Assembly (NCBI RefSeq): GCF_003044305.1
Contig: NZ_PZOX01000005.1
Coordinates: forward strand, 515,493-579,492
Reading direction: 5' to 3'
Source of the DNA: Vitiosangium sp. GDMCC 1.1324
GTDB lineage: Bacteria; Myxococcota; Myxococcia; Myxococcales; Myxococcaceae
DNA: 64,000 bases
Shown here: positions 22,931 to 63,149 of the stretch, one piece after another
How the letters are laid out: every line of letters begins with the position of its first letter
Position numbering within the stretch: position 1 is the first letter of the stretch
Notes under the pieces: model-generated
What the model was told of the DNA's origin: nothing
Seen by the model: only the letters and a program-made list of their open reading frames with translations
Databases searched by the model: none
Position numbers and translations under genes: made by a program

Positions 22931-22952
22931 GCAGGACCGAAGGAGGAGGCGC

Positions 22953-24067: not shown

Positions 24068-24071
<4 letters not shown>
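23442..24071 (+). CDS. hscB: Co-chaperone HscB (J-domain) with N-terminal tetracysteine zinc-finger
   Basis: [32 protein letters not shown] is a J-domain with an HPD tripeptide. N-terminal CWNC-x11-CPAC. Confidence 0.85.
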
Positions 24072-25912
<1,841 letters not shown>

Positions 25913-25913
25913 C

Positions 25914-26291
25914 GTGCCCAAGGTCCACTTCAAGAGCCCCCTGGATGACGTCACCGTGGAGGTGACGACGGGGACCACCCTGCTGGACGCCGCCGAGAAG
26001 GCCGGCGCCCAGGTGGGTCACTCCTGCGGCGGAGTCTGCGCCTGCTCCACCTGCCATATCTGGGTGCGCAAGGGCCTCGAGTCGCTCTCCGAGCAGACGG
26101 ACCAGGAGATGGACCGGCTGGACATGGGCTTCGACGTGCGCCCGTACTCCCGCCTGTCCTGCCAGAGCGAGATCGGGAATGAGGACATCCTCGTGGAGAT
26201 TACCGAGGAGTCCCTCTCGGCCTTCATGGACGAGAACCCCGCCGTCCGGCGCCGGCTCGAGTCCGAAGGGAAATGGCCGTTGAAGAAGTGA
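25914..26291 (+). CDS. fdx: [2Fe-2S] ferredoxin Fdx (ISC type)
   Basis: Cys ligands at CGGVCACSTCH ... LSCQ. Confidence 0.9.
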   Translation: MPKVHFKSPLDDVTVEVTTGTTLLDAAEKAGAQVGHSCGGVCACSTCHIWVRKGLESLSEQTDQEMDRLDMGFDVRPYSRLSCQSEIGNEDILVEITEESLSAFMDENPAVRRRLESEGKWPLKK

Positions 26292-44129: not shown

Positions 44130-45079
44130 GCCGCCCCCCGGGCGCCATCTGTGCGCGGTCCCGCGAGCTGGCTGTCGAAGCACCGGATGCCGAGCCGCGT
44201 GAGCTCGTGCACCACCGGCCCCGTGTCCTGGAAGAGGCCGATGACGGCGCCACCATCCCCTCCGGCCCCGGTCAGCTTGGCGCCCAGCGCGCCCATGTTG
44301 CGCAGCCGGTGCACCATGTCGTCCAGGCCCGGCGAGGACAGGCCCAGCGCCGCGAGCAGGCCGTGGTTGACGTTCATCACGTCCCCGAGCGCCTCCACGT
44401 CCCCCTCCTCCACGGCCTCGGCGCCCTCGGAGGCCAGCAGGCCGATCTCCCGGAAGATGCGCTGGTAGCGCTCCGACCAGCGCTTCTGCCGCTCGCGCAG
44501 CGCACCCACCGTCTGCTTCGTCGGGCTGCGCGCGCCCGCCATCACCACCACCAGCTTCACCGGCTTGGGGCTCTCCACCACCTTCGCCTTCCCCTGATCC
44601 GTGCCCGGCTTGCGGCGGTAGAGGATGAGCTGCTCCATGGCGCTCGTGGTGTGATCCACCCCCGACGGCGTCCCGTGGAACTCCTGCTCCATCTCCCACG
44701 CTACGGCCGCCACCTCGGTGGCCGTCGCCTTGCGTCCCGCCGCCTGCAGCAGCACCCGCGCGCACGCCACCGACAGCGCTCCGGAGCTGCCCAGGCCCAT
44801 GGACAGCGGGAGCTCCGTGTCGAACGACACCTTCACTCCGGGCTCGCCGCACGCCGCCATCGCCCGCCCGAAGGCCGCCTTCAGTACCTTGCGCTGCTCG
44901 CCCGTCAGCGCTTCCGGAATGACGAGCTGGCACCGGGCCGCCGGCTCACCGCGCGCCGTCACTCCGCGCGACAGCGGACCGGCCAGCGCCGGGTAGCCAT
45001 ACACCACGCTGTGCTCGCCCAGCAGGATGACCTTGCCAGCGCCGAAGCCGGTCAGGGGAGCAGTGTTGTTCGTTTCCAT
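44126..45079 (-). CDS. mvk: Mevalonate kinase
   Basis: GKVILLGEHSVVYG ... MGLGSSGALSVA, the GHMP motif. Confidence 0.85.
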   Translation of the reverse strand: METNNTAPLTGFGAGKVILLGEHSVVYGYPALAGPLSRGVTARGEPAARCQLVIPEALTGEQRKVLKAAFGRAMAACGEPGVKVSFDTELPLSMGLGSSGALSVACARVLLQAAGRKATATEVAAVAWEMEQEFHGTPSGVDHTTSAMEQLILYRRKPGTDQGKAKVVESPKPVKLVVVMAGARSPTKQTVGALRERQKRWSERYQRIFREIGLLASEGAEAVEEGDVEALGDVMNVNHGLLAALGLSSPGLDDMVHRLRNMGALGAKLTGAGGDGGAVIGLFQDTGPVVHELTRLGIRCFDSQLAGPRTDGARGAA

Positions 45080-45128
45080 GAATGTCCTTGGCCCTCACCC
45101 TGGCCCTCTCCCGAAGGAGAGGGGGGTT

Positions 45129-46457
45129 TCAGCTCTCGGTGCCGGTGGCCGCGCGGAAGTCCTCGGCCGACAGCGAGGCAATGATTTCCCGCGCCTTCTC
45201 CACCTTCACGTGACCCGCCGTCACCAGCAGCTCGGCGATCTTCTCCACCCAGTCGCCCCGCGCTCCCGCCGTCACCGCCACGCACCGCGCATGCAGCGCC
45301 ATGTGGCCCTTCTGGATGCCGATGGAGCCCAGTGCCCGCACCGCCGCGAAGTTCTGCGCCAGCCCCACCGCGGCGAACACCATCGACAGCTCGCGCGCGG
45401 ACTCCACGCGAAGAATCTTCATGGCCACCTGCACGCCCGGGTGCACCTTGATGGGGCCTCCCACCATGCCCAGCGCCATGGGCAGCTCGATGCGGCCCAC
45501 CAGGTGCCCATCATCCACGTGCCACGTCGACAGCGGCCGGTACTGCCCATCCCGGCAGGCGAAGGCGTGCGCACCCGCCTCGATGGCCCGCCAGTCCTGG
45601 CCCGCGGCGATGGCCGCCGAGTCGATGCCGTTCATGATGCCTTTATTGTGCGTGGCCGCCCGGTATGGATCGGCCAGCGCGAAACGGCTCGCCTGGTAGA
45701 TGCCCTCGGCGATGAGATCGCCCGGCAGGTCGAAGTCCGCCAGCGCCCCCACCGGGATGCGGCACGTGGCGCGCGCCAGCCGCCGATCCGCCAGGTTGGA
45801 GAGAATGCGCAGGAACACCTTGCCGCCGGTGAGCTGCTCCAGCAGCGGGGCCACGCCCTCGGCCATGGTGTTGATGAGGTTGGCCCCCATGGCGTCCTGC
45901 GTGTCGATGATCAAGTGGACGACGAGCAGCGGCTCGCCCCGAGGGCCTTCCGGGGCCGGGAGCACGCGCACCTCGATGTCCCTGCACCCACCGCCGCGCT
46001 TCACCATCGACGGGTGGAAGCTGTTGGCCAGCGCGAGCAGGGCCTCCTTGGCCGCGAGGATCTTCTTCGTCGCCTCGGTGGGATCCCCGTAGCGGGTGAG
46101 CTGCACCTGGCCAATCATGATGGGGCCATCCGCCTCGGCGGTGAAACCACCCGCCTCGCGGACGATCTTCGAGGCGAAGGACACCGCGGCCACCACCGAC
46201 GGCTCCTCCACCGCCATGGGCACCAGGTAGTCCCGCTCGTTGATCCGCAGGTTGAGCCCGAGCCCCAGCGGCAGCGAGAACGTGCCCACGGCGTTCTCGA
46301 TCATCTGGTTCGCCAGGCCCGGCTGGAGCGCACTGATGCCCTGGAGCTGCGCCAGGTCCATCTCATCCAGCCCCAGCATCTGAGCGAGCTTCTCGTGGCG
46401 CTCGACCATCGACAGCTTGTGGAAGCCAGACAACCGGGACGTCAGCGTTTCAGACAT
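45129..46457 (-). CDS. mvaA: Hydroxymethylglutaryl-CoA reductase (class II)
   Basis: Class II HMGR motifs ENAVGTFSLPLG and DAMGANLIN. Confidence 0.9.
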   Translation of the reverse strand: MSETLTSRLSGFHKLSMVERHEKLAQMLGLDEMDLAQLQGISALQPGLANQMIENAVGTFSLPLGLGLNLRINERDYLVPMAVEEPSVVAAVSFASKIVREAGGFTAEADGPIMIGQVQLTRYGDPTEATKKILAAKEALLALANSFHPSMVKRGGGCRDIEVRVLPAPEGPRGEPLLVVHLIIDTQDAMGANLINTMAEGVAPLLEQLTGGKVFLRILSNLADRRLARATCRIPVGALADFDLPGDLIAEGIYQASRFALADPYRAATHNKGIMNGIDSAAIAAGQDWRAIEAGAHAFACRDGQYRPLSTWHVDDGHLVGRIELPMALGMVGGPIKVHPGVQVAMKILRVESARELSMVFAAVGLAQNFAAVRALGSIGIQKGHMALHARCVAVTAGARGDWVEKIAELLVTAGHVKVEKAREIIASLSAEDFRAATGTES

Positions 46458-46505
46458 TCGTATCTCCGCTACGGAAGGGCGAATTCGGGGTCGCGGGAAT
46501 AATCC

Positions 46506-47594
46506 CTACAGCGCCGAGAGCCAGTCCTTCAACTGGCCCATGATGACGCGGGGTTTCTGCCTCAGTTCCCCACAGTTCCGGCTGCCTGTCAGCACGAGAG
46601 CCTGGCGAAGGCCGGAGAGGATGATGGCGAGCGCCTGCTCGGCCCCTTCCAGCCCGCCTGCCTGCTGGGCCCGGAAGAGAGGCAGCGCCATCCCGGCCAG
46701 ATCCGCTCCCAGTGCGAGCACCTTCGCCGCATCCAGTCCAGTGCGCAGCCCACCCGAGGCCACCAGACGCGGCTCCGGACCCACGGCCCTGCGCACGGAG
46801 GCGATGGCCGCCGCGGTGGGGATGCCCCAGCTCGAGAACTCGGCGCCCACCTGGGCCTGCACGCCCGTGGCGCGCAGCTGCTCCACCCGCACCCACGAAG
46901 TGCCGCCCAACCCCGACACGTCCACGTTGCGCACGCCCAGGTCCACCAGCCGGCGCGCCACCTCGGGGCCGATGCCGCACCCCGTCTCCTTCACCAGCAG
47001 GCGCGAGCCGAAGGCGCGCACCAGCCCCTCCACCACGTTGTACCCACCGCGGAAGTCCCGATCGCCCTCGGGCTGGGTCAGCTCCTGGCCCGCGTTGAGG
47101 TGCAGCGCCATGCCGTCCGCGCCAATGGCATCCGCCAGCCGCCGCACCCCGTCCACGCCCAGCTCTATCGCCTGGTACAGGCCGATGTTGCCCAGCAGCG
47201 GCACCGTGGGCGCCACGTGACGCACGGCATAGGACTCCGCTGCCTTCGGGTTCTCCGCCATGGCTCGCTGGCTGCCTACCCCGAAGGCCAGCCCGTGCCG
47301 CTCGGCCAGCAGCGCCAGGTCCCGGTTCACCACCCCGGCCCGCTCCGTGCCGCCCGTCATGCCGGTGATGAGCAGCGGGTAGCGAATCTTCTTGCCTAGG
47401 AACTCCGTGGAGAGGTCCACCTCTTCCACGGCCAGCTCCGGCATCGCGCAGTGCACCAGCCGCACGTACTCCAGCAGCGTGCTGTTCTCCGCCGGCTCGA
47501 CGTCTCCGGTCGCGCACAGGTCGAGGTGGGCGTCCTTGCGCTTCGCGGTCGCCTCCTCACCCGTCACATCCCGCCTGCCCTGTTTAGGAACCAT
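46506..47594 (-). CDS. fni: Type 2 isopentenyl-diphosphate delta-isomerase (FMN-dependent)
   Basis: TIM-barrel IDI-2 pattern, including motifs such as ITGMTGG and SGGLRTG. Confidence 0.9.
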   Translation of the reverse strand: MVPKQGRRDVTGEEATAKRKDAHLDLCATGDVEPAENSTLLEYVRLVHCAMPELAVEEVDLSTEFLGKKIRYPLLITGMTGGTERAGVVNRDLALLAERHGLAFGVGSQRAMAENPKAAESYAVRHVAPTVPLLGNIGLYQAIELGVDGVRRLADAIGADGMALHLNAGQELTQPEGDRDFRGGYNVVEGLVRAFGSRLLVKETGCGIGPEVARRLVDLGVRNVDVSGLGGTSWVRVEQLRATGVQAQVGAEFSSWGIPTAAAIASVRRAVGPEPRLVASGGLRTGLDAAKVLALGADLAGMALPLFRAQQAGGLEGAEQALAIILSGLRQALVLTGSRNCGELRQKPRVIMGQLKDWLSAL

Positions 47595-47733
47595 GTGCCT
47601 GGAAAATTACAAGAACGACGAGAGTGTCCGATATCCTCGAATCCCTAGCAAGTAGGGCAGGCAGGCGCAAGCCACGCCTGTTCAACGGAGCCCTACACCG
47701 GGTGCGGGTGGACGGTTGGAGAGAGCGGACGGT

Positions 47734-50417: not shown

Positions 50418-51491
50418 GTGCTGGTAGCACTCCTCATCGTCGTCTCGCTGGGCTTCCTCATCACGCTCAGCATGCTGCTCTTTGGCTCGAAGCAGGCCGC
50501 GGCGCTCCCCTCCTCGACGCACCCCGTCAAGGCCGAGCTGGAGTCCGACACCAAGGCGCGCGCGCGTCTGGAGGCCGACCTGGAGCGCAAGCGCAAGGAG
50601 CTGGATGAACAGCGTACGCAGCTCCAGGATGTGAAGGAGCAGCTCAAGCAGGCCAAGCGGAAGATCTACGAGCAGAAGGAATCGGAGAAGGGCGAGAAGG
50701 ACCTGGTCAAGGCCCGCCTCGAGGTGGAGCGCACCGCCTCCACGCAGCTCGAGGTCGTCCGGGGCGAGTTGGCCCAGGCCGAGGCGGAGATTGCTCGGCT
50801 GAAGGCCGAGACCGAGATGGGCCGGGGTGGCCGCCGGGGTGGCGCTCCCGCCGCCGCACCTGCTCCTGCTCCTGCTCCCGCTCCCGCCGTGGCCGCCACG
50901 CCGGCGCCGCAGCAGCAGCTGTCCGCCCCCGCGCAGCCGGAGGAGCGGGTGGTGACCGCGACCACGACCGTGGTGCCCGCCGCCGCCGAGCCCGCGGCCG
51001 AGAAGGGGCAGCGCCGCTACCGTGATCTGAACGACGCCGACCGCGAGAAGATGGAGCGGCTGGAGGCGACGGCGAACAAGGAGCGCAGCCGGTCCGCCGA
51101 GCTGGAGCGCGAGCTCAAGCGCGTCAAGGGCCGTGCCGACTCGCAGCAGCGCATCTTCACCGCCAGCAAGAACGATCTGGAGCTGGTGAAGGACAAGTAC
51201 AAAGCGCTGGAGAAGCGCCTGAACCGCACGCTGCTGGAGCGTGATCTGCTGCGCCGGGCCATCAAGGACCTGGAGAAGAAGACGGGCATGCTGGCCGAGC
51301 GCACGGAGCTGACGCCGGACGAGATGGCCGCCAGCGATCGGAAGGTGGAGGAGGCCGCACAGGCCCGCACCGCCGCCGAGGCCGCGCAGCAGCAGGCCGT
51401 CGCCGCCGCCGAGCAGTCCAGCACCCCTGCCGAGCAACCCGCGACGGGCGAGTCCCAGCAGGACGAGAAGCCCTCGGCGCCGACCGCGTAG
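50418..51491 (+). CDS. Membrane-anchored coiled-coil protein (hypothetical)
   Basis: An N-terminal TM helix, long coiled coil, and an APAPAPAPA low-complexity linker. Confidence 0.6.
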   Translation: MLVALLIVVSLGFLITLSMLLFGSKQAAALPSSTHPVKAELESDTKARARLEADLERKRKELDEQRTQLQDVKEQLKQAKRKIYEQKESEKGEKDLVKARLEVERTASTQLEVVRGELAQAEAEIARLKAETEMGRGGRRGGAPAAAPAPAPAPAPAVAATPAPQQQLSAPAQPEERVVTATTTVVPAAAEPAAEKGQRRYRDLNDADREKMERLEATANKERSRSAELERELKRVKGRADSQQRIFTASKNDLELVKDKYKALEKRLNRTLLERDLLRRAIKDLEKKTGMLAERTELTPDEMAASDRKVEEAAQARTAAEAAQQQAVAAAEQSSTPAEQPATGESQQDEKPSAPTA

Positions 51492-51559: not shown

Positions 51560-52864
51560 TCAGCTGCCCAACATGCGCAGGAAGGGAGATGCCGACAGAC
51601 GTCCGCGCATCTCCCGGGCCTGCACCAGCCCGGTATGCTGGAGCTGCGTGAAGGCCCGCGTCTGGAGCTGACACGCCCCCTGACTGCGGAGGGAGAGCTC
51701 CAACGCGAGCACGTGCCGTCGCCGCATGGGGCCCTGCTCCAGTTCCTCCAGCAGGCCGTCCAGACTGAACGCGCGCCCGCGCAGGTAGCGGGTGCCACGG
51801 GCGAAGTCCTTCCGAGATTCCGACCACCACGCGGCCACCGCCTCTCTTGCCGGTACCGGTAGCGCATCCTCCGGCCGAGGCTCCAGATCCCGCGAAAGGT
51901 CCTCCACGAGCGGGGGCAACGGCTCTTCTTCTTTCCCCTCCCTCGCGTAGGCGCCTTCCAGCTTCAGCCCGGTGATGGCACTGAAGGCTTCGCCCGCCAG
52001 GGCCGCCACGGGTCCCGGCCCCATGAGCTCCAGGCACGCCTCGGCGGCCTCCACTCGGCCACTGAAACCCAGCGCCCAGAGGGCGTTCTCGCGCATCGCC
52101 TCCGCCCCGGTGCACGCCGACAGCCGCACCAGGTCACGCTCGTCGCCACCGAGCGCCAGCATTACCAGCGACATCCGATCCACCTTCGTGCGCGAATCCA
52201 CCGCCTTGCGGCACGCCTCCCAGGCGGCATGCACTCCAGACATCATCCCCGCCGCGATGGCGGCTTCCCGCACGCCAGGACGCGAGTCCGCCAGCAATCG
52301 GGGCAGCTCGCGCGAGGCCACGTCCCGGGGCAAGGACGGCATACCGCGGAGCACGGCCACCACCACCCGGGCGTCCGGGTGCCCGAGCAACTCCACCTCG
52401 ACACCGCGAGGGAGCTGACCCCTGGAAGCGAGGACCTCGAGGGCCCAGGCCTGGAGCACGGGCTCCGGGGTCTTCAGCAATGACAGCAGGGCCTCGCCCA
52501 CCTCCGGCCGTCCGTTCAGCTCCAGCGCCCGCCCGAGGGGGGCGAGCGGCCCTTCGGGAGCGGCGGCCTGTACCCGCTTCACCAGTTCGGCCAGTTCCAG
52601 GCGTCCGGGCTCGGCCAACAGCGCCCAGAGCGCAGCGGAGATGCGCGGCGGGTCCTCCGAGTCCAACGCGGGCAACAGCAACTCCCTGGCCACGGCCTCG
52701 CCGCCCACCACCAGCCCGTCCAGGTGAGCCAGCAGCCGCTCCTCCAGCGAGGCCACGTCCTCCAGGGAATAGTCTGGCGCCACCAGGGCGCGATTCCACT
52801 GCACCCAGAGGAAGCTCGCCTCGTCCAGGTGCTCCTCGTAGATGTCCATCAGCGGGGATGCCAT
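51560..52864 (-). CDS. Alpha-helical repeat (HEAT-like) protein, TIGR02270-like family
   Basis: Repeated LL..PD.RV..A.L.G units. The family assignment is from memory of myxobacterial paralog families and is tentative. Confidence 0.6.
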   Translation of the reverse strand: MASPLMDIYEEHLDEASFLWVQWNRALVAPDYSLEDVASLEERLLAHLDGLVVGGEAVARELLLPALDSEDPPRISAALWALLAEPGRLELAELVKRVQAAAPEGPLAPLGRALELNGRPEVGEALLSLLKTPEPVLQAWALEVLASRGQLPRGVEVELLGHPDARVVVAVLRGMPSLPRDVASRELPRLLADSRPGVREAAIAAGMMSGVHAAWEACRKAVDSRTKVDRMSLVMLALGGDERDLVRLSACTGAEAMRENALWALGFSGRVEAAEACLELMGPGPVAALAGEAFSAITGLKLEGAYAREGKEEEPLPPLVEDLSRDLEPRPEDALPVPAREAVAAWWSESRKDFARGTRYLRGRAFSLDGLLEELEQGPMRRRHVLALELSLRSQGACQLQTRAFTQLQHTGLVQAREMRGRLSASPFLRMLGS

Positions 52865-52867
52865 GGA

Positions 52868-53391
52868 TCAGTTCACCTGCACCGAGCCACCCTTGATGCG
52901 GTGGGTGCCCGAGGCGTGGCTTTCGATCTGGGTCCCCTTGATGACAACCCGGCCATTGCGCCGCAGGGTGATGCTGGCCTGGCCGCATCGCAAAACAATC
53001 TCATCCTGGCCCTCGATGACGACTCGTTTGCCATCGACATGAGCCTCCACGGGCTGCTCCTCGATGGGCGCGGACTGCGCAAGGACTGCGTCCAGCAACG
53101 GCGTGGAACTGGGTGTCTGCTCCAGCCCCACCACCAATGGCATCAAGGGATCTCCATTTTCGAAGAGCAATACCGCCCGCTGACGGGTAGCAATGGCATC
53201 CCGCAGCGCCTCGGGCTCCAACGGAACCGTGCGCCGGGCAGCCAACGGACGGCCGGTGCGATTTCCCTCGAAGTCCACCAGCAGCATTCCCGCCTCATCC
53301 GTCCCAACGACCCACCCCAACTTGCTTCCCCAGATGGGCTCGCGCGTTTCATCGTCCGACCCTGTTCCCAACGAATGCATGGGTACCTTCA
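52868..53391 (-). CDS. Hypothetical protein with C-terminal beta-strand repeat (DUF6484-like, tentative); co-transcribed with the TIGR02270-like gene
   Basis: A GGAGAC RBS then MKVPMHS. The C-terminus VDGKRVVIEGQDEIVLRCGQASITLRRNGRVVIKGTQIESHASGTHRIKGGSVQVN resembles beta-helix/spike-like repeats. Confidence 0.5.
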
Positions 53392-53536
53392 TCCGGTGTC
53401 TCCTCTGATTGTGCTGGGTCCCAGCCCTGCCCCCCCATGGGTAGGAATAGTCTATCAGGTGGAACACCTTCTCCAGGAGTCCCTACCAGTCGCTATCAGA
53501 GCAACGAGAGTGCTGGATGGCAAACACCTACAACGT

Positions 53537-53565
53537 TTGACATATGCATCTGAATTTATCTAACG
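53537..53565 (+). promoter_or_regulatory. AT-rich promoter candidate (TTGACA -35-like hexamer, TATCTA/TCTAAC -10-like) for the DUF2169 operon
   Basis: The only strongly AT-rich stretch in the 53.4-53.6 kb divergent region. Hexamer spacing is suboptimal. Confidence 0.25.
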
Positions 53566-53595
53566 TCACTCCTCCGAAGTAGGGGGGATTAAACA

Positions 53596-54606
53596 ATGTG
53601 GGGGCTGAAGAATCGCACGGCCTACGCCGCAGAACGGAACTGGACGCGCGACAAGGACGGAGTCCATTGGTGGCTCGTCGCAGTCAAGGCAACGTTCGAC
53701 ATCGCTCCCGGGGGACGGCTCATGCTGGCGGACGAGCAACCGCCCCCGGTGCTGGCACCAGAGTATTTCGGCGAACCAGGCCGGTCGAGCTTGCGCTACG
53801 ACTCCGATCTCCTCGCGGCGAAGCCGGGCACGGACGTGCTGGTCGCCGCGCACGCGCACGCGCCGCATGGAAAACCTGCTCCCACGGTGCCGGTCTCGCT
53901 CCGTATCGAACGGCTCCACAAGGAGATACTCATACACGGGGAACGCCTCTACGACCGGGGGTTGCTCGGCGTGACGGTGACCCGGCCGCAGCCGTTCACC
54001 ACGCGCCCGATTCGATACGAATTCGCATTCGGTGGCAGCGACCTGTCCAACCCCGATCCCCAGAAGCAGCGTATCGATGAGCGGAACCCGATCGGACGCG
54101 GCTTCGCGCGGCGAACAACTGACGTCGTTGGGGAACTGGCCCACGCGATAGAGTATCCACGTGGCGCTCCAGCGGAGATGGGACCGGCGGGGTTCGGCCC
54201 GATCGATTCCTCCTGGATGCCGCGGCGCAAGCTCGCGGGGACATATGACGCACGGTGGGAACAATCGAAGAAGCCGCTGCTGCCTGATGACTTCGATCCC
54301 GCCTTCGCGCTGAGTGCCCCCACGGACCAGCGGACCGAGAAGCCCATCGTCGGCGAAGAGCGTGTCGAGCTCTTGAACATGACCCCCGACGGTGTCCTGC
54401 GCTTCGAGCTCCCGCGCATTTCGCTCGGCTTCACCACGCGCATCGGCACGCGGCGCGAGCAGCACGGCTCGCGACTGGTAACGGTGCTCGTGGAGCCCGA
54501 GGAGAGGCACCTCTCCCTGGTGTGGCAGAGCGTGCTGCGCGTTCCCGTCCCTGACGCGGACTATCTCGACGAAACGGAAATCGTCGAACAAAGGAGTACG
54601 ATGTGA
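53596..54606 (+). CDS. DUF2169-domain protein (T6SS effector adaptor family)
   Basis: MWGLKNRTAYAAE...WLVAVKATFDI is the characteristic DUF2169 N-terminus. A GGGGGG RBS precedes it. Confidence 0.8.
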   Translation: MWGLKNRTAYAAERNWTRDKDGVHWWLVAVKATFDIAPGGRLMLADEQPPPVLAPEYFGEPGRSSLRYDSDLLAAKPGTDVLVAAHAHAPHGKPAPTVPVSLRIERLHKEILIHGERLYDRGLLGVTVTRPQPFTTRPIRYEFAFGGSDLSNPDPQKQRIDERNPIGRGFARRTTDVVGELAHAIEYPRGAPAEMGPAGFGPIDSSWMPRRKLAGTYDARWEQSKKPLLPDDFDPAFALSAPTDQRTEKPIVGEERVELLNMTPDGVLRFELPRISLGFTTRIGTRREQHGSRLVTVLVEPEERHLSLVWQSVLRVPVPDADYLDETEIVEQRSTM

Positions 54607-55652
54607 ACGCCCAGGTCGAGGTGGTGGCCGTCGGCGCGCGAACCCCTGTCGGCCTCACCGCCGAGAGCAGTGCGGCGGCCGTGCGCGCTGGCATCACGCG
54701 GTACGCCGAGTATCCCTTCATCGACCCTCGCGGCGAACCGGTCGTGGTCGCCGCCGACCGGCTGCTCGAACCCAAGTTCGAGGGACGAGACCGTCTGGCG
54801 CCCATGGCCGAGAGTGTTCTCGAGGAGATTGAAGCCAAGATCGATCAGAAGATCCTCTACGGGGGCAGGCTCAGCGTGTTGCTCGCGCTTCCAGAAACCC
54901 GCCCGGGGTTCTCCGAGGACGACGCGGCCTGGGTGGCGAACGCCCTGGCTGCTCGGTTCCGAGCAAAAACGTCCAACGCGCACGTCGAGATCGCCGGGCG
55001 AGGGCACGCCGGAGCGATTCGGGCCGTCGAGCAGGTGGTGAGGGAGTGCTCCGAAAGCAGGGACAATCTGTTCCTGGTCGTTGGAGTCGACAGCTACCAC
55101 CACGCAGATACGTTCGCATGGTTGGAGCGCAGCCGCCGGTTCGCACAACCGGGGATTCGCAACGGGTTCACCCCGGGCGAGGGAGCTGGATGCCTCGCAC
55201 TGATGAGCGCGGGACTGCGCCGTCGCTTGCGCCTCCCCCAACTGGCCATCATGCGAGGGGCGAGCACCGCACAGGAGCGACTGCTGCGCGACAGTGACAC
55301 GGGCTCGTTCGGCGTCGGAATGACCCAGGCGCTCCAAGGCGCCATCGCTGGCCTCGACCGTCCCCGCGAGGGCGTCGACGCCGTGTACACGGATATCAAT
55401 GGTGAACGTTACCGCAGTGAGGAGTGGGGCTTCGTCGCGTTGCGTGCACCGTCGGTCTGGAAGACGCCCGGGTACAAGGCCCCGAGCGACTGCTGGGGTG
55501 ACGTGGGCGCTGCATTTGGGACGCTCGGGAGCATCCTGGCGGTCCAGGCGTTCGCGCGGAGCTACGCGCGAGGCCCGAGGGCTCTGGTGATGGCAGGCTC
55601 AGATGGCGGGCTGAGAGGGGCTATGCTCCTGCAAGCTCCCCAGGTGTCATGA
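54603..55652 (+). CDS. Ketosynthase (thiolase-fold)-like protein lacking the catalytic Cys (putative pseudoenzyme)
   Basis: VEVVAVGARTPVG / NGFTPGEGAGCLAL / GDVGAAFGTLGSILAVQAF parallel KAS I/II conserved blocks. The position equivalent to the active-site Cys reads IAGRGHAG. It overlaps the DUF2169 stop. Confidence 0.55.
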   Translation: MNAQVEVVAVGARTPVGLTAESSAAAVRAGITRYAEYPFIDPRGEPVVVAADRLLEPKFEGRDRLAPMAESVLEEIEAKIDQKILYGGRLSVLLALPETRPGFSEDDAAWVANALAARFRAKTSNAHVEIAGRGHAGAIRAVEQVVRECSESRDNLFLVVGVDSYHHADTFAWLERSRRFAQPGIRNGFTPGEGAGCLALMSAGLRRRLRLPQLAIMRGASTAQERLLRDSDTGSFGVGMTQALQGAIAGLDRPREGVDAVYTDINGERYRSEEWGFVALRAPSVWKTPGYKAPSDCWGDVGAAFGTLGSILAVQAFARSYARGPRALVMAGSDGGLRGAMLLQAPQVS

Positions 55653-55665
55653 GGAGGCAATCCGA

Positions 55666-56802
55666 ATGTCGAAAGTCTCTGTGAATACTCCGAAGACCCC
55701 GGTGACCGAAGGGACCAACGGGGTCGCCGCGGCGACGTTGCCCAACGTGTGCAAGATGCCGGGGCCGCCAGCTCCGTTTGTCCCGACCCCTCTGCCCAAC
55801 ATCGGCAAGAGCGGAACAGACCCGAAGAACTACTCCAAGAGCGTCACAATCGAAGGGAAGAAGGTGGCGATCAGGGGCGCCACCTTCGGTTCCATGGGTG
55901 ACGTGGCCAGCAAGGGGACCGGAGGCGGAATCGTCTCCTCCAACGTGGAAGGACCCACGAGCTTCGTGGGACCCGGGTCCATGGACGTGAAGATCGAGGG
56001 GAAGAACGTCCAACTGCTCGGCGACCCGATGCTCAACAACTGCGGGCCGAGCGGCAGCCCGGCGAACGCGGCGACAATGATGGGCGTGCTCCAAACGACC
56101 GGGTTCGTCACGGTCGTCAATGGGGAGGACAAATGCCCTTTGTGCAGGCAGCGACACGGTGAAGACGCTACTCTGAAAGAGGCTCCGTCGACGAAGGTCA
56201 ATGCCGGGCGACTAGCGCAGAGAGTCGCCAGGAAGGTGCGCTCTGGCGAATCTCCCCCTCTCGCGACAATGCTGGGGGTAGTCCAGTGCAAGTGTGGAAA
56301 AAAGAAAACCTATGCAGACCACTCGGGGGATACACTCCAATGTGTTTGCGACAGTATCGCGGAGCTAAAATGGGTGGGCCCCACGACTGCAACCAGTCCT
56401 GACATCAAAAAGAAAAAGGTCAAGAGTTTCCTTGAAGGTCGTTTCAGCCAACGAGGGGCAGACTTAGACAAGACGTGGCAGAAACTCACTCACCGCGCCC
56501 AAAAGAGCAAGCGCGGTGAGACCTCGTCTGCGGCCTACCCTCCGGGCTCTTGTGCTGGCCCAAGGGCACTCGTGCTCGCTCTAGAAGATAAAGCCTATCC
56601 GGCTGGCCTCACCGAACGATGGTTCCACAGCGGAAAGCAGCCGGTTGAGGCGAAGATCAGGTTCCGCGATGCGGAGAGCGGTGAAGAGGTCGAAGCTTAC
56701 TTCGACCATGGAAAGACCGTCCCGCCGTGTTTGACCTGCAATGTCATCATTCCTTCAATGCTCTGCCCCGAAGACAAGGAAATCGAATGTCAGCACCCTT
56801 AA
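55666..56802 (+). CDS. DUF4150 (PAAR-like) domain polymorphic toxin with Cys-rich C-terminal domain of unknown type
   Basis: N-terminus LPNVCKMPGPPAPFVPTPLPNIG ... IEGKKVAIRG ... IEGKNVQLLGDPMLNNCG is a typical DUF4150. The C-terminal approx. 220 aa carry CPLC, QCKCG, QCVC, SC, PPCLTC and C..C motifs, with GC content visibly lower than the flanks. Confidence 0.8.
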   Translation: MSKVSVNTPKTPVTEGTNGVAAATLPNVCKMPGPPAPFVPTPLPNIGKSGTDPKNYSKSVTIEGKKVAIRGATFGSMGDVASKGTGGGIVSSNVEGPTSFVGPGSMDVKIEGKNVQLLGDPMLNNCGPSGSPANAATMMGVLQTTGFVTVVNGEDKCPLCRQRHGEDATLKEAPSTKVNAGRLAQRVARKVRSGESPPLATMLGVVQCKCGKKKTYADHSGDTLQCVCDSIAELKWVGPTTATSPDIKKKKVKSFLEGRFSQRGADLDKTWQKLTHRAQKSKRGETSSAAYPPGSCAGPRALVLALEDKAYPAGLTERWFHSGKQPVEAKIRFRDAESGEEVEAYFDHGKTVPPCLTCNVIIPSMLCPEDKEIECQHP

Positions 56803-57542
56803 TGGAACTCGAGATGGAAGAACTGCTCCTGAGAATCGAGCCAGAACTCGCGGACCAGTGGCAGGGGGCGACTCCCGACATGATCGAGAAGATCGAGCGG
56901 CTTGCTGGTCACCCTTTGCCTCCATTCTATCGCTGGTTCCTAAGTCGCATGGGTAAGAGCATGGGGGCTCTGGCCTATCCGACTGTAGACTTCTCAGCGC
57001 AACGCGTGCTCGCCTGCTACGCCGAGAAGTTGGTCATGCCCGACCCCCGATTCTTGCTCATCGGATATGAATCCAATGAGATGATGCCTCTGCATGTCTT
57101 TTACGATTTCGATGCGCCGGCTCGAGAGGACGCCCTGGTGACGGAACGTTACGCCAAGGGAGGTGAACTTTACGACAGCTTCGAGACTTTGCGCGAAATG
57201 TTAGCATGGGGTGCGCTCTTGAAGTTCAGGGTCAACAAGATGCCGCAACAGTGTGAGGGCGTTCTCTCCAGCGATGATCCAGATCTCCTCTCACACCTCG
57301 ATCCGCTGATGAGTAGTCTTGGGTTCACCAAGCCGATTCCCACCGGGCCTCGCTGTGGCCTTTACGAGCGGCACGATTCGGTCCTGATATGCTCGCGTAC
57401 GCCGAGGGAAGAACTTATCGGCAATCAGGCCTTCACGCTCGGTGGACGCGACTCGGGAGTTCTCAGAAAGATTCTGGGCAGGATCACAACCGAGTCCTCG
57501 CTAGAGGTCGAAGTCGACGAGTGGACGCCAGCGCTCCGATGA
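56787..57542 (+). CDS. Immunity protein candidate (SUKH / SMI1-KNR4-like)
   Basis: It overlaps the toxin 3' end by 16 bp. DMIEKIERLAGHPLPPFYRWFLSRMG resembles the SMI1/KNR4 N-terminal signature, and GC content is lower. Confidence 0.65.
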   Translation: MSAPLMELEMEELLLRIEPELADQWQGATPDMIEKIERLAGHPLPPFYRWFLSRMGKSMGALAYPTVDFSAQRVLACYAEKLVMPDPRFLLIGYESNEMMPLHVFYDFDAPAREDALVTERYAKGGELYDSFETLREMLAWGALLKFRVNKMPQQCEGVLSSDDPDLLSHLDPLMSSLGFTKPIPTGPRCGLYERHDSVLICSRTPREELIGNQAFTLGGRDSGVLRKILGRITTESSLEVEVDEWTPALR

Positions 57543-57788: not shown

Positions 57789-59357
57789 TCAGTCCAGCGG
57801 TACTGGCGTGTAGATGAACAGGTCCCCCAGTGTCGTCTGCCGGACCCCGTTGTCGTCCAGGCCGCCCACCACGAGCACCGAGCCGTCCTCCAGCACCGTG
57901 CACGTGTGCTGGTGACGCTCCCGCTCCAGCGGCTTCAACCCGAGCAGCGCCGTCGGGCCACCTTCCTTCCCGGGGACGAGCATCTCCACATGCGGGTCAC
58001 TCACGAGCCCACTCGTGCTGGACCCCAGCCCTCCCAGGGTCATCACCCGCCCATCCGGCAGCGCCACCGCGCACAGGTTGCTCCGGGCGAACACCTGGGG
58101 CCCCGCCGTCACCTGTGAGTCGCTCGCGGAAATGATCTCCGAGGAGGCCAGGAGCCTCACGTCCTCCACGCGGCCGGGCGAGTCGTAGCCCCCCAGGTAC
58201 GCCAGCCGCTCCGGCCCACCGAATGGCACGAGCGCCCCGTCGCGCCGGGGCTCCCGCAGCCGTGCGCCCTCGCCCACCGGAACGAAGCTGCCTCCCTCGT
58301 ACCCGAAGAACAGCACCTCCGGGCGCAACTCCGTCCCATCCCAGCCCCCCACCACGGCGATGCGCCGCCCCTCCTGCACCGCCATCACCCCCATGCCCAC
58401 CCGGGGCACCCGCGTGCTCACGGAGAACCCCTGGCCCGTCGTGCTGTCGTAGCCCTCGGCCTCCGACACCACCGCCCCCCCCTCCCCCACTCCCCCGACG
58501 AGCAGCACCCGCCCGCCCGAGTCCACCGCCGCCGCGTGGTGGCTGCGCGCCACCTTCAACTCCACCGCCGTGGACGTCCCCTGGGCCACGTCCAGCACCC
58601 GGGCATTCCGCATGGGCAACGTCCCCTCCGCCGACACCGCCTCGCCTCCCGCCACCAGCACCTTGCCTCCCGGCAGCCGCGTCGCGGTGTGGAATGCCCT
58701 CGGCGAGCCCAACCCCAGCCCCTGCTCCAGCGCGCCCGTCACCGGATCGAAGAGCTCCGTCGAGGACAGCGTCGTGCTGTCCCCGTTCAGGTCGAGCTGG
58801 ATGCCTCCGGCCAGCAGCACCCGCCCGTCCTCCAGCAGCGTCGCGGTGTGCCCCGCCCGGGGCTCCGCGAGCGTCACGCACGCATCATTCGCCCCGCCCG
58901 GCCTCACATACTCGTCCACACGGCGCACCGCGACGCGCACCGTCGGGCGGCCCTCGTCCGCCGACTCCGGCACGTCGAAGGGATGCGAGCGCCCCACGGA
59001 CACCACGCGGCCTCCCGCTCCAGGCAGGTCCGTGTAGCCGCGCACCTCCAGCACCCGACCCTTCCCCGAGGGGACCTCCGGCGGCTCCACCCGGCCCGGC
59101 TCCACCAGGACGTAGCGCTCCACGGGCTCCATCCCCACGCCGGTGACTCGGAAGCGCAGGTAACGCACCCCCTCCAGGGCCGGCGTCCCCGAGCACGCCT
59201 CCGTGCGGAGTTCCACCCCGTAGAGCCCCTCCCTCGGCCCACAGCCAGCGAGGAGCCCCATCGCCACCACCCAGGCCTTCCAGCCTGGCGACCGGGCCCT
59301 GCCCTGTCCGATGCCCCACCCGGCGGGCAAGGTCCACCCGTTGATACTCCGCCCCAT
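57789..59357 (-). CDS. Kelch-repeat lipoprotein
   Basis: ...AMGLLAGC lipobox, then repeated GRVLLAGG / GKVLVAGG / GRVLLVGG beta-propeller blades. The listed 862-aa ORF upstream extension was rejected. Confidence 0.7.
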   Translation of the reverse strand: MGRSINGWTLPAGWGIGQGRARSPGWKAWVVAMGLLAGCGPREGLYGVELRTEACSGTPALEGVRYLRFRVTGVGMEPVERYVLVEPGRVEPPEVPSGKGRVLEVRGYTDLPGAGGRVVSVGRSHPFDVPESADEGRPTVRVAVRRVDEYVRPGGANDACVTLAEPRAGHTATLLEDGRVLLAGGIQLDLNGDSTTLSSTELFDPVTGALEQGLGLGSPRAFHTATRLPGGKVLVAGGEAVSAEGTLPMRNARVLDVAQGTSTAVELKVARSHHAAAVDSGGRVLLVGGVGEGGAVVSEAEGYDSTTGQGFSVSTRVPRVGMGVMAVQEGRRIAVVGGWDGTELRPEVLFFGYEGGSFVPVGEGARLREPRRDGALVPFGGPERLAYLGGYDSPGRVEDVRLLASSEIISASDSQVTAGPQVFARSNLCAVALPDGRVMTLGGLGSSTSGLVSDPHVEMLVPGKEGGPTALLGLKPLERERHQHTCTVLEDGSVLVVGGLDDNGVRQTTLGDLFIYTPVPLD

Positions 59358-59471
59358 GGCGTTCCCCTTTTGCGGTTTCCGGCCACGGCTCAGCCAAAGA
59401 TGGCTTGCGCTCGGACCGCCGCGAGCGTAGCGATGCCCTCTGGCCGTGGTCAACGCGGCCCCTGTCCCCGA

Positions 59472-61013
59472 ATGAAGCTCTCGCTCGCCACCCGCATCTT
59501 CCTCGGTTACGCGGTGGTGCTCGTCACCTTCGGCGCCGTGTCCCTGTTCAGCGTGGCCGAGCTCCATCGCAACCGCCTGGAGATCCGCTTGGTGAGCCAG
59601 GGCTACCTGCAGCTCTCCCAGGACGCCGCCACGCTCGAGTCCATCCACGCCAATCAGGAGCGGGACACCGAGCGGTTGCTCGAGGAGGGCAGCGTGGAGA
59701 CGCGGCGGGCCCTCATCCGGCTCGCCCGGGTGTACCTGCCTACCCCCATGGAGCGGTTGCGGGCCGCCCAGGAACGGACCCGCGAGATGCGCGCCCTGGT
59801 CCCCGCGGGCGAGGTGCAGATCGTCATCCAGGAGCTGGAGTCGCGCTTCGGCGAGCTCGCCAACCGCTACCAGTCCTACGGCCGGGCGGCCGAGGCCGTC
59901 TTCACGGTGCTCTCCAGCGAGAGCCCCGCCACGGAGGAGGTGTCCCGCGCCACCGCCGAGCTGCGTCAGCATCAGGCCTCCATCGGCAGCGACATCCACC
60001 GCCTGCGCGCCGCCCTCAGCAACCGCATCCGCGAGCGCGTGGACGGGGCCGAGGACCGCGAGCGGCGCACGGGCCTGGCCATCATCACCCTGTCCGTGCT
60101 GGCCATCGGCGTGGGTCTGGGCGCCACCGCCTGGTCCGCCCGCACGCTGCGCCCGGTGCGCACCCTCATCGAGGGCGTGTCGCGCATCGGCCGCGGCGAC
60201 TACAGCGCGCAGCTCGGCGTGCGCGGCGACGACGAGGTGGCGGTGCTCGCCCGCAGCTTCGATGCCATGGCCCGCTCGCTCCAGGCGCGCGAGGCCCAGC
60301 TGAAGGCCCAGGCCGAGGCCCTCATGCGCGCCGAGCAGCTCGCCGCCGTGGGCCGCATCTCCGCCCAGGTCGCCCACGAGGTACGCAACCCCCTATCCTC
60401 CATCGGCCTCAACGTGGAGCTGATGCAGGACGCCTTCGAGCGCGCCACCTTCGAGTCCCCGGCCGATGCCCGCGAGGCGCGCGAGCTGCTCGCCGCCGTC
60501 ACCCGCGAGGTGGACCGGCTCACCGAGGTGACGGAGCAGTACCTGCGCATGGCCCGCCCGCCCAGGCCCAGCCTCGAGCCCACCGACGTCACCGAGGTGC
60601 TCGCCAGCGTGCTGGACTTCTCTCGCGAGGAGCTGGAGCGCGCCCACGTGGAGGTGGTGCGCGAGCTCACCCCGGACACGCCTCGCGCCCTGGCCGACGA
60701 GGGCCAGCTGCGCCAGGTGTTCCTCAACCTGCTGCGCAACGCCCGCGAGGCCATGCCCGACGGCGGCCGGCTCACCATCGCCACGCGCGTCCTCGAGCGC
60801 GAGCTGGAGGTCGCCCTCCAGGACACCGGCCGCGGCATGAGCGAGGCCGTGCGCTCGCGCATCTTCGAACCCTTCTTCTCCACCAAGGAAGACGGCACGG
60901 GGCTGGGCCTCGCCGTCTGCCAGCAGATCCTCAAGGCCCATGGCGGCGAGCTCTCGTGTCAGAGCGAGTCCGGCCAGGGCACCACCTTCTTCGTCAGGCT
61001 TCCCCGCGCATGA
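59472..61013 (+). CDS. HAMP-domain sensor histidine kinase
   Basis: An N-terminal TM, periplasmic region, second TM, HAMP domain, H-box AQVAHEVRNPL, and HATPase domain. Confidence 0.85.
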   Translation: MKLSLATRIFLGYAVVLVTFGAVSLFSVAELHRNRLEIRLVSQGYLQLSQDAATLESIHANQERDTERLLEEGSVETRRALIRLARVYLPTPMERLRAAQERTREMRALVPAGEVQIVIQELESRFGELANRYQSYGRAAEAVFTVLSSESPATEEVSRATAELRQHQASIGSDIHRLRAALSNRIRERVDGAEDRERRTGLAIITLSVLAIGVGLGATAWSARTLRPVRTLIEGVSRIGRGDYSAQLGVRGDDEVAVLARSFDAMARSLQAREAQLKAQAEALMRAEQLAAVGRISAQVAHEVRNPLSSIGLNVELMQDAFERATFESPADAREARELLAAVTREVDRLTEVTEQYLRMARPPRPSLEPTDVTEVLASVLDFSREELERAHVEVVRELTPDTPRALADEGQLRQVFLNLLRNAREAMPDGGRLTIATRVLERELEVALQDTGRGMSEAVRSRIFEPFFSTKEDGTGLGLAVCQQILKAHGGELSCQSESGQGTTFFVRLPRA

Positions 61014-62302
61014 GCTTCACCTACCACCGCGACGTCCTGCCCAACGGCCTGCGCGTCGTCACCGTCGAGACCCCGCACCTGCACACCGCCCTGCTCGCGG
61101 TGTACGTGCGCACCGGCAGCCGCCACGAGACGGCCGCCAACAACGGCGTCAGCCACTTCCTGGAGCACCTCTTCTTCCGCGGCACCGAGGGCTGGCCGGA
61201 TACCGTCAAGATGAACACCGCCGTGGAGGAGGTGGGCGGCAACCTCAACGGCGTCACCACCCGGGACCACGGCTACTACTACACCCCCCTGCACCCGGCG
61301 CACCTGGACGTGGGCCTGGCCATCATCGGCGACATGCTCACCCGACCCCGCCTCACCGACATGGAGGTGGAGCGCAACATCATCCTCGAGGAGATGCTCG
61401 ACGAGGTGGACGAGAAGGGCCGGGACATCGACATCGACAACCTGTCCAAGCGCGTGCTCTTCCCCGAGCACCCCCTGGCCTTCAAGATCGCCGGCACGAG
61501 CGAGTCCGTCTCGCGCCTCACCCACGAGCAGATTCGCGAGCACTTCGCTCGCCACTACGTCACCGGCAACCTGGTGGTGACGGCCGCGGGCCGGGTGAAG
61601 CGCGACGAGGTGCTCGCGATGGTGGAGCGCCACTTCGCGCGGCTGCCCCAGGGACCCGAGAGCCTCGACATCCCACCGCCCTCCACCCCCGCCGGGCCCC
61701 GCCTCCACATCGTCACCCATGACGAGTCCCAGACGGAGTTCCGCCTGAGCTTCCGCACCGTCCCCGAGCACCACGAGGACTGGCCCGCCCTGCAACTGCT
61801 GCGGCGCTTCCTGGATGACGGGCTGTCCTCGCGGCTGCCGTTTGAAATCGTGGAGAAGCGCGGGCTCGCCTATTCGGTGCATGCCTCGCTGGAGGCCTTC
61901 CACGACGCGGGCATCTTCGAGATCGAAGCCGCGAGCGCCCCGGAGCGGGCCTCGCTGGTGGTGGCGGAGACGTTCCGCGTGCTGGGCGAGCTGTGCGGCA
62001 CGGAGGTGAGCGAGGAGGAGCTGAACCGCGCCAAGCGGCGGCACCGGATGTTGCTGGAGTTCTCCCAGGACTCGCCGGGCGAGCTGGCCGGATGGTTCGG
62101 CGGCACGGAGCTGTTCCGCCGGCCCGAGTCCTTCGGCCTGCGCGCGGACCTGGTGGACGCAACGAGCGCGGCCCGGGTGCGCGAGGTGGCCCGGCGCTAC
62201 TTCGCCCGGGAGAACCTCACCGTGGTGGCCGTGGGCCAGCGCAAGGGCATCAAGGCCCTGGAGAAGGTGGTCGACACCGCCGAGGGGCTCCCGACCCGCT
62301 GA
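61010..62302 (+). CDS. M16-family (pitrilysin-like) zinc peptidase
   Basis: HFLEH inverted zincin motif. The start overlaps the kinase stop (ATGA). Confidence 0.85.
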   Translation: MSFTYHRDVLPNGLRVVTVETPHLHTALLAVYVRTGSRHETAANNGVSHFLEHLFFRGTEGWPDTVKMNTAVEEVGGNLNGVTTRDHGYYYTPLHPAHLDVGLAIIGDMLTRPRLTDMEVERNIILEEMLDEVDEKGRDIDIDNLSKRVLFPEHPLAFKIAGTSESVSRLTHEQIREHFARHYVTGNLVVTAAGRVKRDEVLAMVERHFARLPQGPESLDIPPPSTPAGPRLHIVTHDESQTEFRLSFRTVPEHHEDWPALQLLRRFLDDGLSSRLPFEIVEKRGLAYSVHASLEAFHDAGIFEIEAASAPERASLVVAETFRVLGELCGTEVSEEELNRAKRRHRMLLEFSQDSPGELAGWFGGTELFRRPESFGLRADLVDATSAARVREVARRYFARENLTVVAVGQRKGIKALEKVVDTAEGLPTR

Positions 62303-62540
62303 CTTCCACTTTCTCAAACTCAAAGAACACATCGTTGACAGGGAGATCCCCGCTCATCGAGGCTCTCCCCGAGACGTCGTCCGGGAGGCACGAGAAGAAC
62401 CCACCTCGGGAGTCAACTTCCGAGGCATCAAATGCCCGGAGAAGGTGATAGATGCCCATCGCCGAGGGGCGACCCAGCCCCGACGCTCGTCGCGGACGAT
62501 GGGGCTCCGAGCGGAGCCTCCTTCGCTCCAGGGATGCTCG

Positions 62541-63149
62541 ATGATGACCGCTGTCGCACCCCGGAAGGAACCCGTCATCTTCAGCCAGGTGGTGGAAGCG
62601 CTCTTCAAGCACGCCATCAAGAGGGAACGGTTCGACGAGAGCACCCGGAAGCGCCTCAAGACGATCGGCATCGACCTGGACCAGCCCTTCCTGGTCGCCT
62701 ACTCCATTCCCACCTGGTTCGCCGCCATCAACGTCTGTGCCGAGGTCCTCCACCCGGACCTCCCCAGCGAACAGGCCCGCTACCGGCTCGGCCGCCAGCT
62801 GGTGGATGGCTACGGGCAGACCACCATGGGCCGGGCCGTGTTCGCGATGCTCCGGATGCTCGGCTGGGAGCGGTCGCTGACGCGCATCTCCCGAGGGCTC
62901 CAGTCCGGGACCAACTACCTGGCGGCCCGGACCCGCTTCCTGGATGAAAACACCCTCGAGATGATCTTCGAGGTCATCCCCGAGTTCCACACCGCCCTCG
63001 GTCCGCAGCCTGGGATCGATCCGTACTTCATGAACGGCACGATGGACGGGATGATGGCACTGGTCGGCGCGCCGTTCGCGGGAGGCGAGCTGCAGCCCCT
63101 CGAGCCCGGCGCCCAGCACGTCGTCTACGTCCTGCGCCGCAAGGGCTGA
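62541..63149 (+). CDS. DUF2378/TIGR02265-like myxobacterial paralog-family protein
   Basis: Start taken at MMTAVAPRKEP. The family call is from memory and tentative. Confidence 0.6.
   Translation: MMTAVAPRKEPVIFSQVVEALFKHAIKRERFDESTRKRLKTIGIDLDQPFLVAYSIPTWFAAINVCAEVLHPDLPSEQARYRLGRQLVDGYGQTTMGRAVFAMLRMLGWERSLTRISRGLQSGTNYLAARTRFLDENTLEMIFEVIPEFHTALGPQPGIDPYFMNGTMDGMMALVGAPFAGGELQPLEPGAQHVVYVLRRKG

Follow-up and report, generated by a model that had tools for sequence, protein, structure and literature searches.

A probable orphan type VI secretion effector module with a deaminase-like toxin domain in Vitiosangium sp. GDMCC 1.1324

What is the role of a gene set that resembles the loading apparatus of a type VI secretion system (T6SS) effector when no part of the secretion machine is encoded nearby, and what does the cysteine-rich C-terminal domain of the effector do? 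Both questions are raised by a six-gene locus (positions 51560–57542) in a 64-kb stretch of the chromosome of Vitiosangium sp. GDMCC 1.1324, referred to here as the window. The locus is read as an orphan T6SS effector module of the kind described as synteny type A or Class II Tvp, with a probability of about 85%. This reading rests on the protein families present, their gene order, the similarity of one product to the tip of VgrG, the loss of the catalytic triad from a ketosynthase-like protein, the co-occurrence of toxin and immunity genes and the boundary of an exchangeable cassette, all of which are observed. The architecture is already known; the version in the window differs in gene order and orientation and in having no adjacent vgrG.

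Six genes in two divergent arms

The plus-strand arm begins with the gene for TvpA, a single-domain DUF2169 chaperone of 336 amino acids (aa; 53596–54606), and continues with TvpD, a thiolase/ketosynthase-fold protein (54603–55652), the effector (55666–56802) and a predicted immunity protein of 251 aa (56787–57542). The minus-strand arm encodes a TvpC-type DUF6484 protein (52868–53392) and a HEAT/armadillo-like repeat protein of 434 aa (51560–52864). All six open reading frames (ORFs) are intact and each gene is preceded by a Shine–Dalgarno-like motif. The DUF2169 and ketosynthase-like genes overlap by 4 bp, a 13-bp gap precedes the effector gene, and the toxin and immunity genes overlap by 16 bp. 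These junctions are exactly as given in the first-pass annotation, which was made from the sequence alone, and the six ORFs and family calls that it proposed were borne out by searches with hidden Markov models (HMMs), that of the immunity protein at the level of its family.

The two arms are separated by a divergent intergenic region (53393–53595) that is relatively AT-rich, with a GC content of 0.52 against 0.686 for the whole window, and both promoters presumably lie within it. The shared AT-rich promoter region claimed earlier is borne out in composition and is putative as a promoter, as no sigma-70 consensus was found in it. Around the island as a whole, neither sigma-70 promoters nor convincing terminators were found beyond chance. 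A search for signatures of mobile elements, not aimed specifically at tRNAs or integrases, turned up no direct or inverted repeats of note flanking the island.

The repeat protein belongs to NCBIfam TIGR02270 (E 2.3e-101; 339.8 bits against a cutoff of 206.8) and also matches Pfam HEAT_2 (E 1.4e-7). Its equivalents are PA0101 in P. aeruginosa and, in synteny type A, the gene described as ‘armadillo-like repeat’. The neighbouring ORF is open to 53467 and matches Pfam DUF6484 (E 3e-20), with a weak match to DUF2345, the VgrG C-terminal family. Its start is likely the ATG at 53392, giving 174 aa, and is placed there because of the lengths of homologues and the presence of this internal ATG. The last 53 aa of the VgrG encoded at a related locus (L049) align to positions 53029–52871 of the window, the C-terminus of the DUF6484 protein, with 38% identity (E 7.5e-6), and an HMM built from VgrG also picks up DUF6484 ORFs, including that of the window. 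TvpC has been described as mimicking the tip of VgrG, where the cone binds, and as having an OB-fold and a short β-prism (PMC13373197); this published idea gains direct sequence support, because the C-terminus of the DUF6484 protein matches that of VgrG. The protein is accordingly predicted to mimic the VgrG tip and to template a pre-complex.

TvpA covers the full Pfam DUF2169 profile (E 3.6e-86) and carries no pentapeptide extension; that it serves as chaperone to the DUF4150 cone is adopted from published work (PMC11883445; PMC13373197). The overlapping TvpD gene matches NCBIfam PRK06147 (E 1e-59), a family named ‘3-oxoacyl-ACP synthase’, and has a weak Pfam ketoacyl-synt match (E 8e-4). Taken at face value, the name and the weak match could mark a small lipid or polyketide biosynthetic locus with unrelated neighbours. 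This is hardly credible. The PRK06147 score of 202 is far under the equivalog cutoff of 342, and when the TvpD family profile was aligned with E. coli FabF (hhalign, local mode, full-length alignment), the segment around the active-site Cys163 was deleted, His303 was replaced by Asn and His340 by Asp. The gene is moreover wedged between DUF2169 and DUF4150 genes, as in hundreds of T6SS loci. The ketosynthase-like gene was accordingly rejected as a marker of a biosynthetic cluster on account of its missing triad and its T6SS context. Because the Cys-His-His triad is absent from the FabF alignment, TvpD is called a pseudoenzyme, as the first-pass annotation had suspected, judged here by alignment and consistent with a chaperone role; it is predicted to act as a co-chaperone of the PAAR-like domain.

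A probable orphan form of a known T6SS module

It had been suggested that the composition of this locus departs from textbook arrangements. This set of genes has, however, been published as synteny type A (PMC11883445), as the Class II Tvp system (PMC13373197) and as the P. aeruginosa cluster PA0095–PA0101 (PMC7970981). Synteny type A, defined around DUF2169 genes, combines DUF6484, thiolase-like and armadillo-like repeat proteins with a DUF4150 effector and accounts for 28% of DUF2169 genes; in the P. mirabilis cluster, transposon inactivation of each gene stops PefE-dependent killing (Sachar et al., 2025; PMC11883445). Monlezun et al. (2026; PMC13373197) named DUF2169 proteins TvpA, DUF6484 proteins TvpC and PRK06147 proteins TvpD, with PA0095–PA0101 as the model for their ‘Class II Tvp system’, and the window is assigned to Class II because DUF6484 and PRK06147 are both present. 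PRK06147 had been proposed as an adaptor by Liu et al., who linked it to DUF2169 and PAAR and found it adjoining DUF2169 in 74% of cases, with occasional TIGR02270 fusions (PMC7714669).

A close comparison is with the P. aeruginosa vgrG1b cluster (Tse7/Tsi7), which encodes OB-fold, Ig-like, thiolase-like, PAAR-toxin, immunity and HEAT-repeat proteins (PMC7970981). Its PA0096 (DUF6484/OB-fold), PA0097 (DUF2169), PA0098 (PRK06147), PA0099 (DUF4150-toxin), PA0100 (immunity) and PA0101 (HEAT-repeat) all have equivalents in the window. In strain PAO1 vgrG1b lies directly upstream and all genes point the same way, the HEAT gene coming at the end, whereas the window has no vgrG and places the DUF6484 and HEAT genes divergently upstream. 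The toxins also differ, Tse7 being a Tox-GHH2 nuclease and the window toxin an unannotated deaminase-like domain accompanied by SUKH immunity. The P. mirabilis pef operon (PefE) likewise contains DUF6484, armadillo/HEAT-like, DUF2169, thiolase-like and DUF4150-effector genes; it is linked to vgrG and hcp, carries another toxin domain and has genetics available, whereas the myxobacterial locus is known from sequence. The DUF2169–DUF4150 core of chaperone and cone is further shared with the S. marcescens TvpAB/TvpB/TvpC–Paar1 system (Class III) and with Agrobacterium Tap/Tde2 (Class I). Class III, the only case in which a pre-complex with a VgrG-mimicking TvpC has been dissected experimentally, differs in its DUF3540 TvpC, its pentapeptide-repeat TvpB and its lack of PRK06147, and Class I has DUF2169 only.

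The mechanism proposed for the window is modelled by homology on the systems of P. aeruginosa, P. mirabilis, V. parahaemolyticus and S. marcescens, from which we infer the order of assembly, the dependence on a T6SS in this organism and the chemistry of the toxin. The DUF4150 cone of the effector would be bound and stabilized by TvpA together with the catalytically dead, ketosynthase-like TvpD, while a TvpC trimer would serve as a surrogate VgrG tip on which the pre-complex is templated. A cognate VgrG trimer, encoded in another part of the genome, would then receive the loaded cone, which the T6SS would fire into neighbouring cells. The TIGR02270 HEAT/armadillo protein may be a further conserved accessory factor, its requirement having been demonstrated only in P. 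mirabilis. In the recipient cytoplasm the putative zinc-binding, deaminase-like C-terminal domain would act as the poison, most likely on nucleic acids or nucleotides, and the SUKH-family protein would shield sibling cells.

Several observations weigh against this reading of the module. The plausible ORFs of the whole 64 kb, chosen by codon-position GC and scanned with Pfam, include no vgrG, hcp or tss family, as had been noted at the outset, and a tblastn and HMM search of the window for VgrG and Hcp had the C-terminus of the DUF6484 protein as its sole match. The genes elsewhere in the 64 kb are housekeeping and regulatory (isc, mevalonate pathway, HtpX, two-component systems, ABC transporters and Kelch proteins). 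Related loci are also often incomplete. In a set of 79 from species-representative genomes, nearly all from Myxococcota or unclassified metagenome-assembled genomes (MAGs), component counts by tblastn and locus-built HMMs gave TvpA in 58 and TvpD in 65, compared with a TIGR02270 protein in 25 and an own DUF6484 gene in just 8. Finally, one member of the toxin family is fused to the core domain of an extracellular contractile injection system (eCIS) in place of DUF4150.

The scarcity of vgrG is shared by the relatives. A full-length VgrG was found within 10 kb at only 4 of the 79 loci, and among those with full 10-kb flanks it is absent from 45 of 47. The orphan state is for this reason taken as the norm in Myxococcota, and the locus in the window as an orphan variant of synteny type A/Class II rather than as something excluded from it. 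TvpA is conserved 5′ of the effector in 58 of the 79 loci, and TIGR02270 homologues adjoin DUF2169 genes in 25. A complete co-linear form is also found: L049 carries hcp, vgrG, DUF6484, HEAT/TIGR02270, DUF2169, PRK06147, a DUF4150 protein with the same toxin family, and immunity. The same six-gene arrangement as in the window, including the inverted DUF6484 and TIGR02270 pair, recurs in two Archangium MAGs (L008 and L020) at 85–87% nucleotide identity; in L008 the synteny extends to the flanking HtpX, acyltransferase, coiled-coil and Kelch genes. Together with the HMM families, the published gene set and the pairing of toxin and immunity genes described below, these comparisons support the orphan effector/immunity module that the first-pass annotation had proposed.

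The lack of a linked vgrG, both in the window and at most related loci, would also be expected if the module were a silent or non-functional relic, stranded and no longer delivered. That is improbable. All six ORFs are intact, with tight or overlapping junctions and Shine–Dalgarno motifs, the six genes have been kept in synteny in L008 and L020, and the toxin and immunity genes continue to be replaced, which argues that the module is under selection. In M. xanthus, moreover, none of the PAAR-toxin loci is linked to the single T6SS cluster, and yet they reportedly work through it in kin discrimination (PMC12077131; PMC5801462). A T6SS core in the Vitiosangium genome, and delivery through it, are presumed from this precedent. 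The M. xanthus toxin–immunity cassettes (for example MXAN_0049/0050, and the PAAR-CT proteins of Liu et al., 2021) are PAAR-linked and scattered like the module in the window, and M. xanthus strains carry distant members of the window's toxin-domain and immunity families; the characterized M. xanthus toxins are AHH-type nucleases, unlike that of the window.

Delivery by an eCIS-like contractile injection system or another route is judged very improbable for the module. It draws on the eCIS fusion mentioned above, the distant member P0348, in which the eCIS core and UCH domains lie upstream of the same toxin domain. This is a single exception among the ten atypically long family members scanned, nine of which carry DUF4150. 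DUF2169, PRK06147 and DUF6484 are T6SS-specific accessory families, and at L049 hcp and vgrG are in direct linkage with this toxin family. Across the toxin family, the fusion does mean that delivery is not exclusively by T6SS. P0348 itself is 1377 aa long and its UCH domain is deubiquitinase-like; another member, P0266 (722 aa), fuses the ketosynthase-like TvpD, the PAAR-like domain and the toxin domain in one ORF.

An orphan T6SS module of the synteny type A/Class II kind hence remains the preferred reading, with one qualification. The pre-complex model may not apply uniformly, because most related loci lack DUF6484 and HEAT genes of their own. In Myxococcota the DUF6484 and TIGR02270 factors encoded by a minority of loci may serve many paralogous TvpA–TvpD–effector modules in trans. 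The scarcity of own TvpC and HEAT genes at myxobacterial modules was not met in the cited literature as far as it was searched. For annotation, the comparison allows tvpC, the HEAT/TIGR02270 accessory gene, tvpA, tvpD, the DUF4150 effector and the SUKH immunity gene to be named with confidence. It also extends Class II Tvp/synteny type A to Myxococcota, in a form typically unlinked to vgrG and often without its own TvpC and HEAT proteins, and prompts the question of whether TvpC and the HEAT protein work in trans. In Citreicoccus inhibens (L010, 4938–11889) effector cassettes have been amplified locally: TvpA, a truncated TvpD, a PAAR-toxin and immunity protein are followed in tandem by a further TvpD, PAAR-toxin and immunity protein.

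The effector, its putative toxin domain and the immunity protein

The effector (WP_108068304.1) is labelled by NCBI only as ‘PAAR-like domain-containing protein’. Its N-terminal part, from aa 1 to about 145 (55666–56100), forms the DUF4150 or PAAR-like (‘PIPY’) cone domain, with a Pfam Tox-PAAR-like/DUF4150 match at aa 23–126 (E 2.4e-17), after which come about 230 unannotated residues. In the full-length AlphaFold model the confidence score (pLDDT) of the DUF4150 domain is below 50 despite a deep and highly conserved alignment there, which is compatible with a cone that needs VgrG or its chaperones in order to fold. The low score was considered as an argument against DUF4150 and rejected, as the HMM evidence is strong and the domain is expected to fold against partners.

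The C-terminal toxin domain (aa ~146–378; 56101–56802) is cysteine-rich and has no match in Pfam (E up to 10), in NCBIfam or in the PDB (phmmer and profile searches), so that its earlier description as unclassified is upheld. The family comprises 92 clusters at 90% identity and 315 representatives at 50% identity. Its named members belong to Myxococcota, apart from one record labelled Comamonas, and often occur as several paralogues per genome. The domain is modelled by AlphaFold2 with a pLDDT above 90 within the full-length protein, and of 89.6 with a predicted template modelling score (pTM) of 0.89 when modelled alone. In comparisons the predicted fold appears nearest to those of cytidine deaminases, the T6SS toxin SsdA among them, the structures concerned being blasticidin-S deaminase, cytidine deaminase 3b8f and SsdA; TadA, guanine deaminase and DddA come lower down the lists.

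Three cysteines, invariant in the family, are in keeping with a zinc site of deaminase type: C296, at the N-terminus of a helix in the motif ‘SCA[AG]PKAL’, and C355 and C358, at the N-terminus of another helix in ‘PPCxTC’. In an hhalign comparison they line up with Cys53, Cys86 and Cys89 of the cytidine deaminase of B. subtilis and with the corresponding residues of blasticidin-S deaminase, the zinc cysteines of the CAE...PCxxC motif. By this alignment the domain appears to keep the three zinc ligands of deaminase type and is predicted to bind zinc.

Against a deaminase stand the low hhalign probability of only 11% (P 0.0027), a Foldseek search of the PDB with the C-terminal-domain model that gave no significant match (best E 0.84), and the absence of any Pfam, NCBIfam or PDB HMM connecting the domain to a deaminase family. 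At the position two residues after the first cysteine, where the canonical [HC]-x-E glutamate would be expected, 110 of 146 representatives have Ala, 24 have Gly and none has Glu. The domain is filed as deaminase-like, and not as a deaminase, because this glutamate is never present. An invariant [TS]-E (E317) is found in the strand that follows the C296 helix (strand β3), and H164, E172 and a second Cys/His cluster (C157, C160, C367, C375 and H377) are also invariant. Compared with SsdA/BaDTF2, DddA and the cytidine and blasticidin-S deaminases, to none of which there is a sequence-profile match, the window toxin has as additional features the next-strand [TS]-E, a helical insert of about 60 residues, a β-hairpin before PCxxC and the second Cys/His cluster.

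These features could belong to a zinc-binding toxin with a chemistry other than base deamination, hydrolytic or binding, built on a deaminase-like or convergent α/β scaffold and with E317 or H164/E172 in its active site. The missing glutamate, the invariant E317 and E172 and second cluster, which are unlike those of deaminase families, and the lack of significant structural or HMM links make this a serious contender that falls a little short of an even chance. It has to contend with the register of the three best-conserved cysteines, which is that of deaminase zinc ligands, and with the nature of the immunity protein. SUKH immunity proteins, as reportedly described by Zhang et al. in 2011, are typically paired with toxins that act on nucleic acids. 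On balance a fold relationship with the deaminases is somewhat favoured, while actual base-deaminase activity is doubtful. The specific proposal of an undescribed clade of the deaminase superfamily, in which the three-cysteine site has been kept and the catalytic glutamate has moved to the [TS]-E of the following strand, is likewise tentative and would sooner prove wrong than right.

A deaminase-like toxin family without the canonical glutamate is uncharacterized and was not encountered in the cited literature as far as searched. If the proposal of such a clade is true, the domain would be either a rewired nucleic-acid deaminase, and possibly a new base-editor scaffold, or the bearer of a new zinc-dependent toxin chemistry. 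DNA base editors were sourced from interbacterial deaminase toxins, and for that reason the family merits a biochemical test. Abundant, unannotated and predicted with a high-confidence fold, this domain family is the one genuine lead that the locus offers.

The assignment of the gene at 56787–57542 as the cognate immunity gene is strongly indicated by its family and context. The protein alone matches SMI1_KNR4/SUKH below the cutoff (E 0.0045), whereas 24 of the 43 members of its family match SMI1_KNR4 (best E 7e-6) and homologues are named ‘SMI1/KNR4 family protein’ by NCBI; it is regarded as a divergent member of the SUKH-1/SMI1-KNR4 family. Its homologues have a length of about 251 aa, in support of a start at the ATG at 56787. 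Of the 54 loci that have the toxin domain, 53 carry a homologue directly 3′ of the effector gene; the 15 loci that lack the domain have none there. At three loci (L002, L003 and L039) one toxin gene is followed by at least two tandem immunity paralogues that are 35–64% identical to the window protein. Clusters of immunity proteins (>183) outnumber those of the toxin (92), M. xanthus entries included, which suggests that orphan immunity genes exist.

The toxin domain and the immunity gene together form a compositionally foreign, recombining and exchangeable polymorphic cassette with a break at about 56146. Between the window and the syntenic L008, nucleotide identity is approximately 0.9 over 53596–56145, falls to 0.49–0.57 over 56146–56570 and recovers to 0.7–0.8 over the immunity gene. 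At the protein level this corresponds to 97% identity for the PAAR domain, 48% for the C-terminal domain and 74% for the immunity protein, and in related loci the PAAR domain is 88–97% identical even where the C-terminal domain is just 37–48% identical. The GC content at third codon positions (GC3) is 0.62–0.67 in the toxin domain and immunity gene, compared with 0.84 in the PAAR part and 0.85–0.91 in neighbouring genes, and a dip in GC along the window coincides with this low-GC3 cassette. Such exchange fits kin discrimination or competition among myxobacteria.

A distant toxin subfamily (E 1e-10 to 1e-13) is found in Myxococcus, at 8778–10031 of L052 (M. xanthus AM003) and at L054, L057, L060, L062, L064 and L071. 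It contains a coiled-coil insert of about 70 residues, keeps ‘C-A-A’, ‘I/L-E’ and ‘SCxxC’, and is followed by an immunity homologue of 26–28% identity. It might correspond to the published PAAR-CT protein MXAN_1813, an antifungal protein whose C-terminal domain is reported from myxobacteria only.

Other features of the window

Two very large Kelch-repeat β-propeller proteins are encoded on the minus strand, at 1–3330, with more than ten Kelch motifs, and at 57789–60377. The second gene, immediately next to the T6SS module, is conserved in L008, as are two plus-strand genes that are seemingly unrelated to the module: one for an Ala/Glu-rich coiled-coil protein (50418–51491) and one for a DUF2378 protein (TIGR02265, Myxococcus paralogous family; 62025–63149). 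The isc Fe–S cluster operon (20946–26291) encodes IscS, IscU, IscA, HscA and Fdx, and a mevalonate-pathway cluster on the minus strand (42058–47606) contains two GHMP kinases, HMG-CoA reductase and a gene resembling the FMN-dependent type-2 isopentenyl diphosphate (IPP) isomerase.

A 300-nt direct repeat of 98% identity (12004–12303 and 16450–16749, 4446 bp apart) brackets a secreted trypsin-like protease/ricin-lectin gene and a gene with PAN and F5/8-type-C domains. It looks like a recent segmental duplication, because each copy encodes the same signal-peptide-bearing N-terminal ORF fragment. Within the trypsin-like protease gene lie three tandem copies of about 108 nt that are 86–89% identical (13492–13860) and correspond to repeated ricin-B/DUF3930-like modules (‘KADGRFLHEDGWGD...’).

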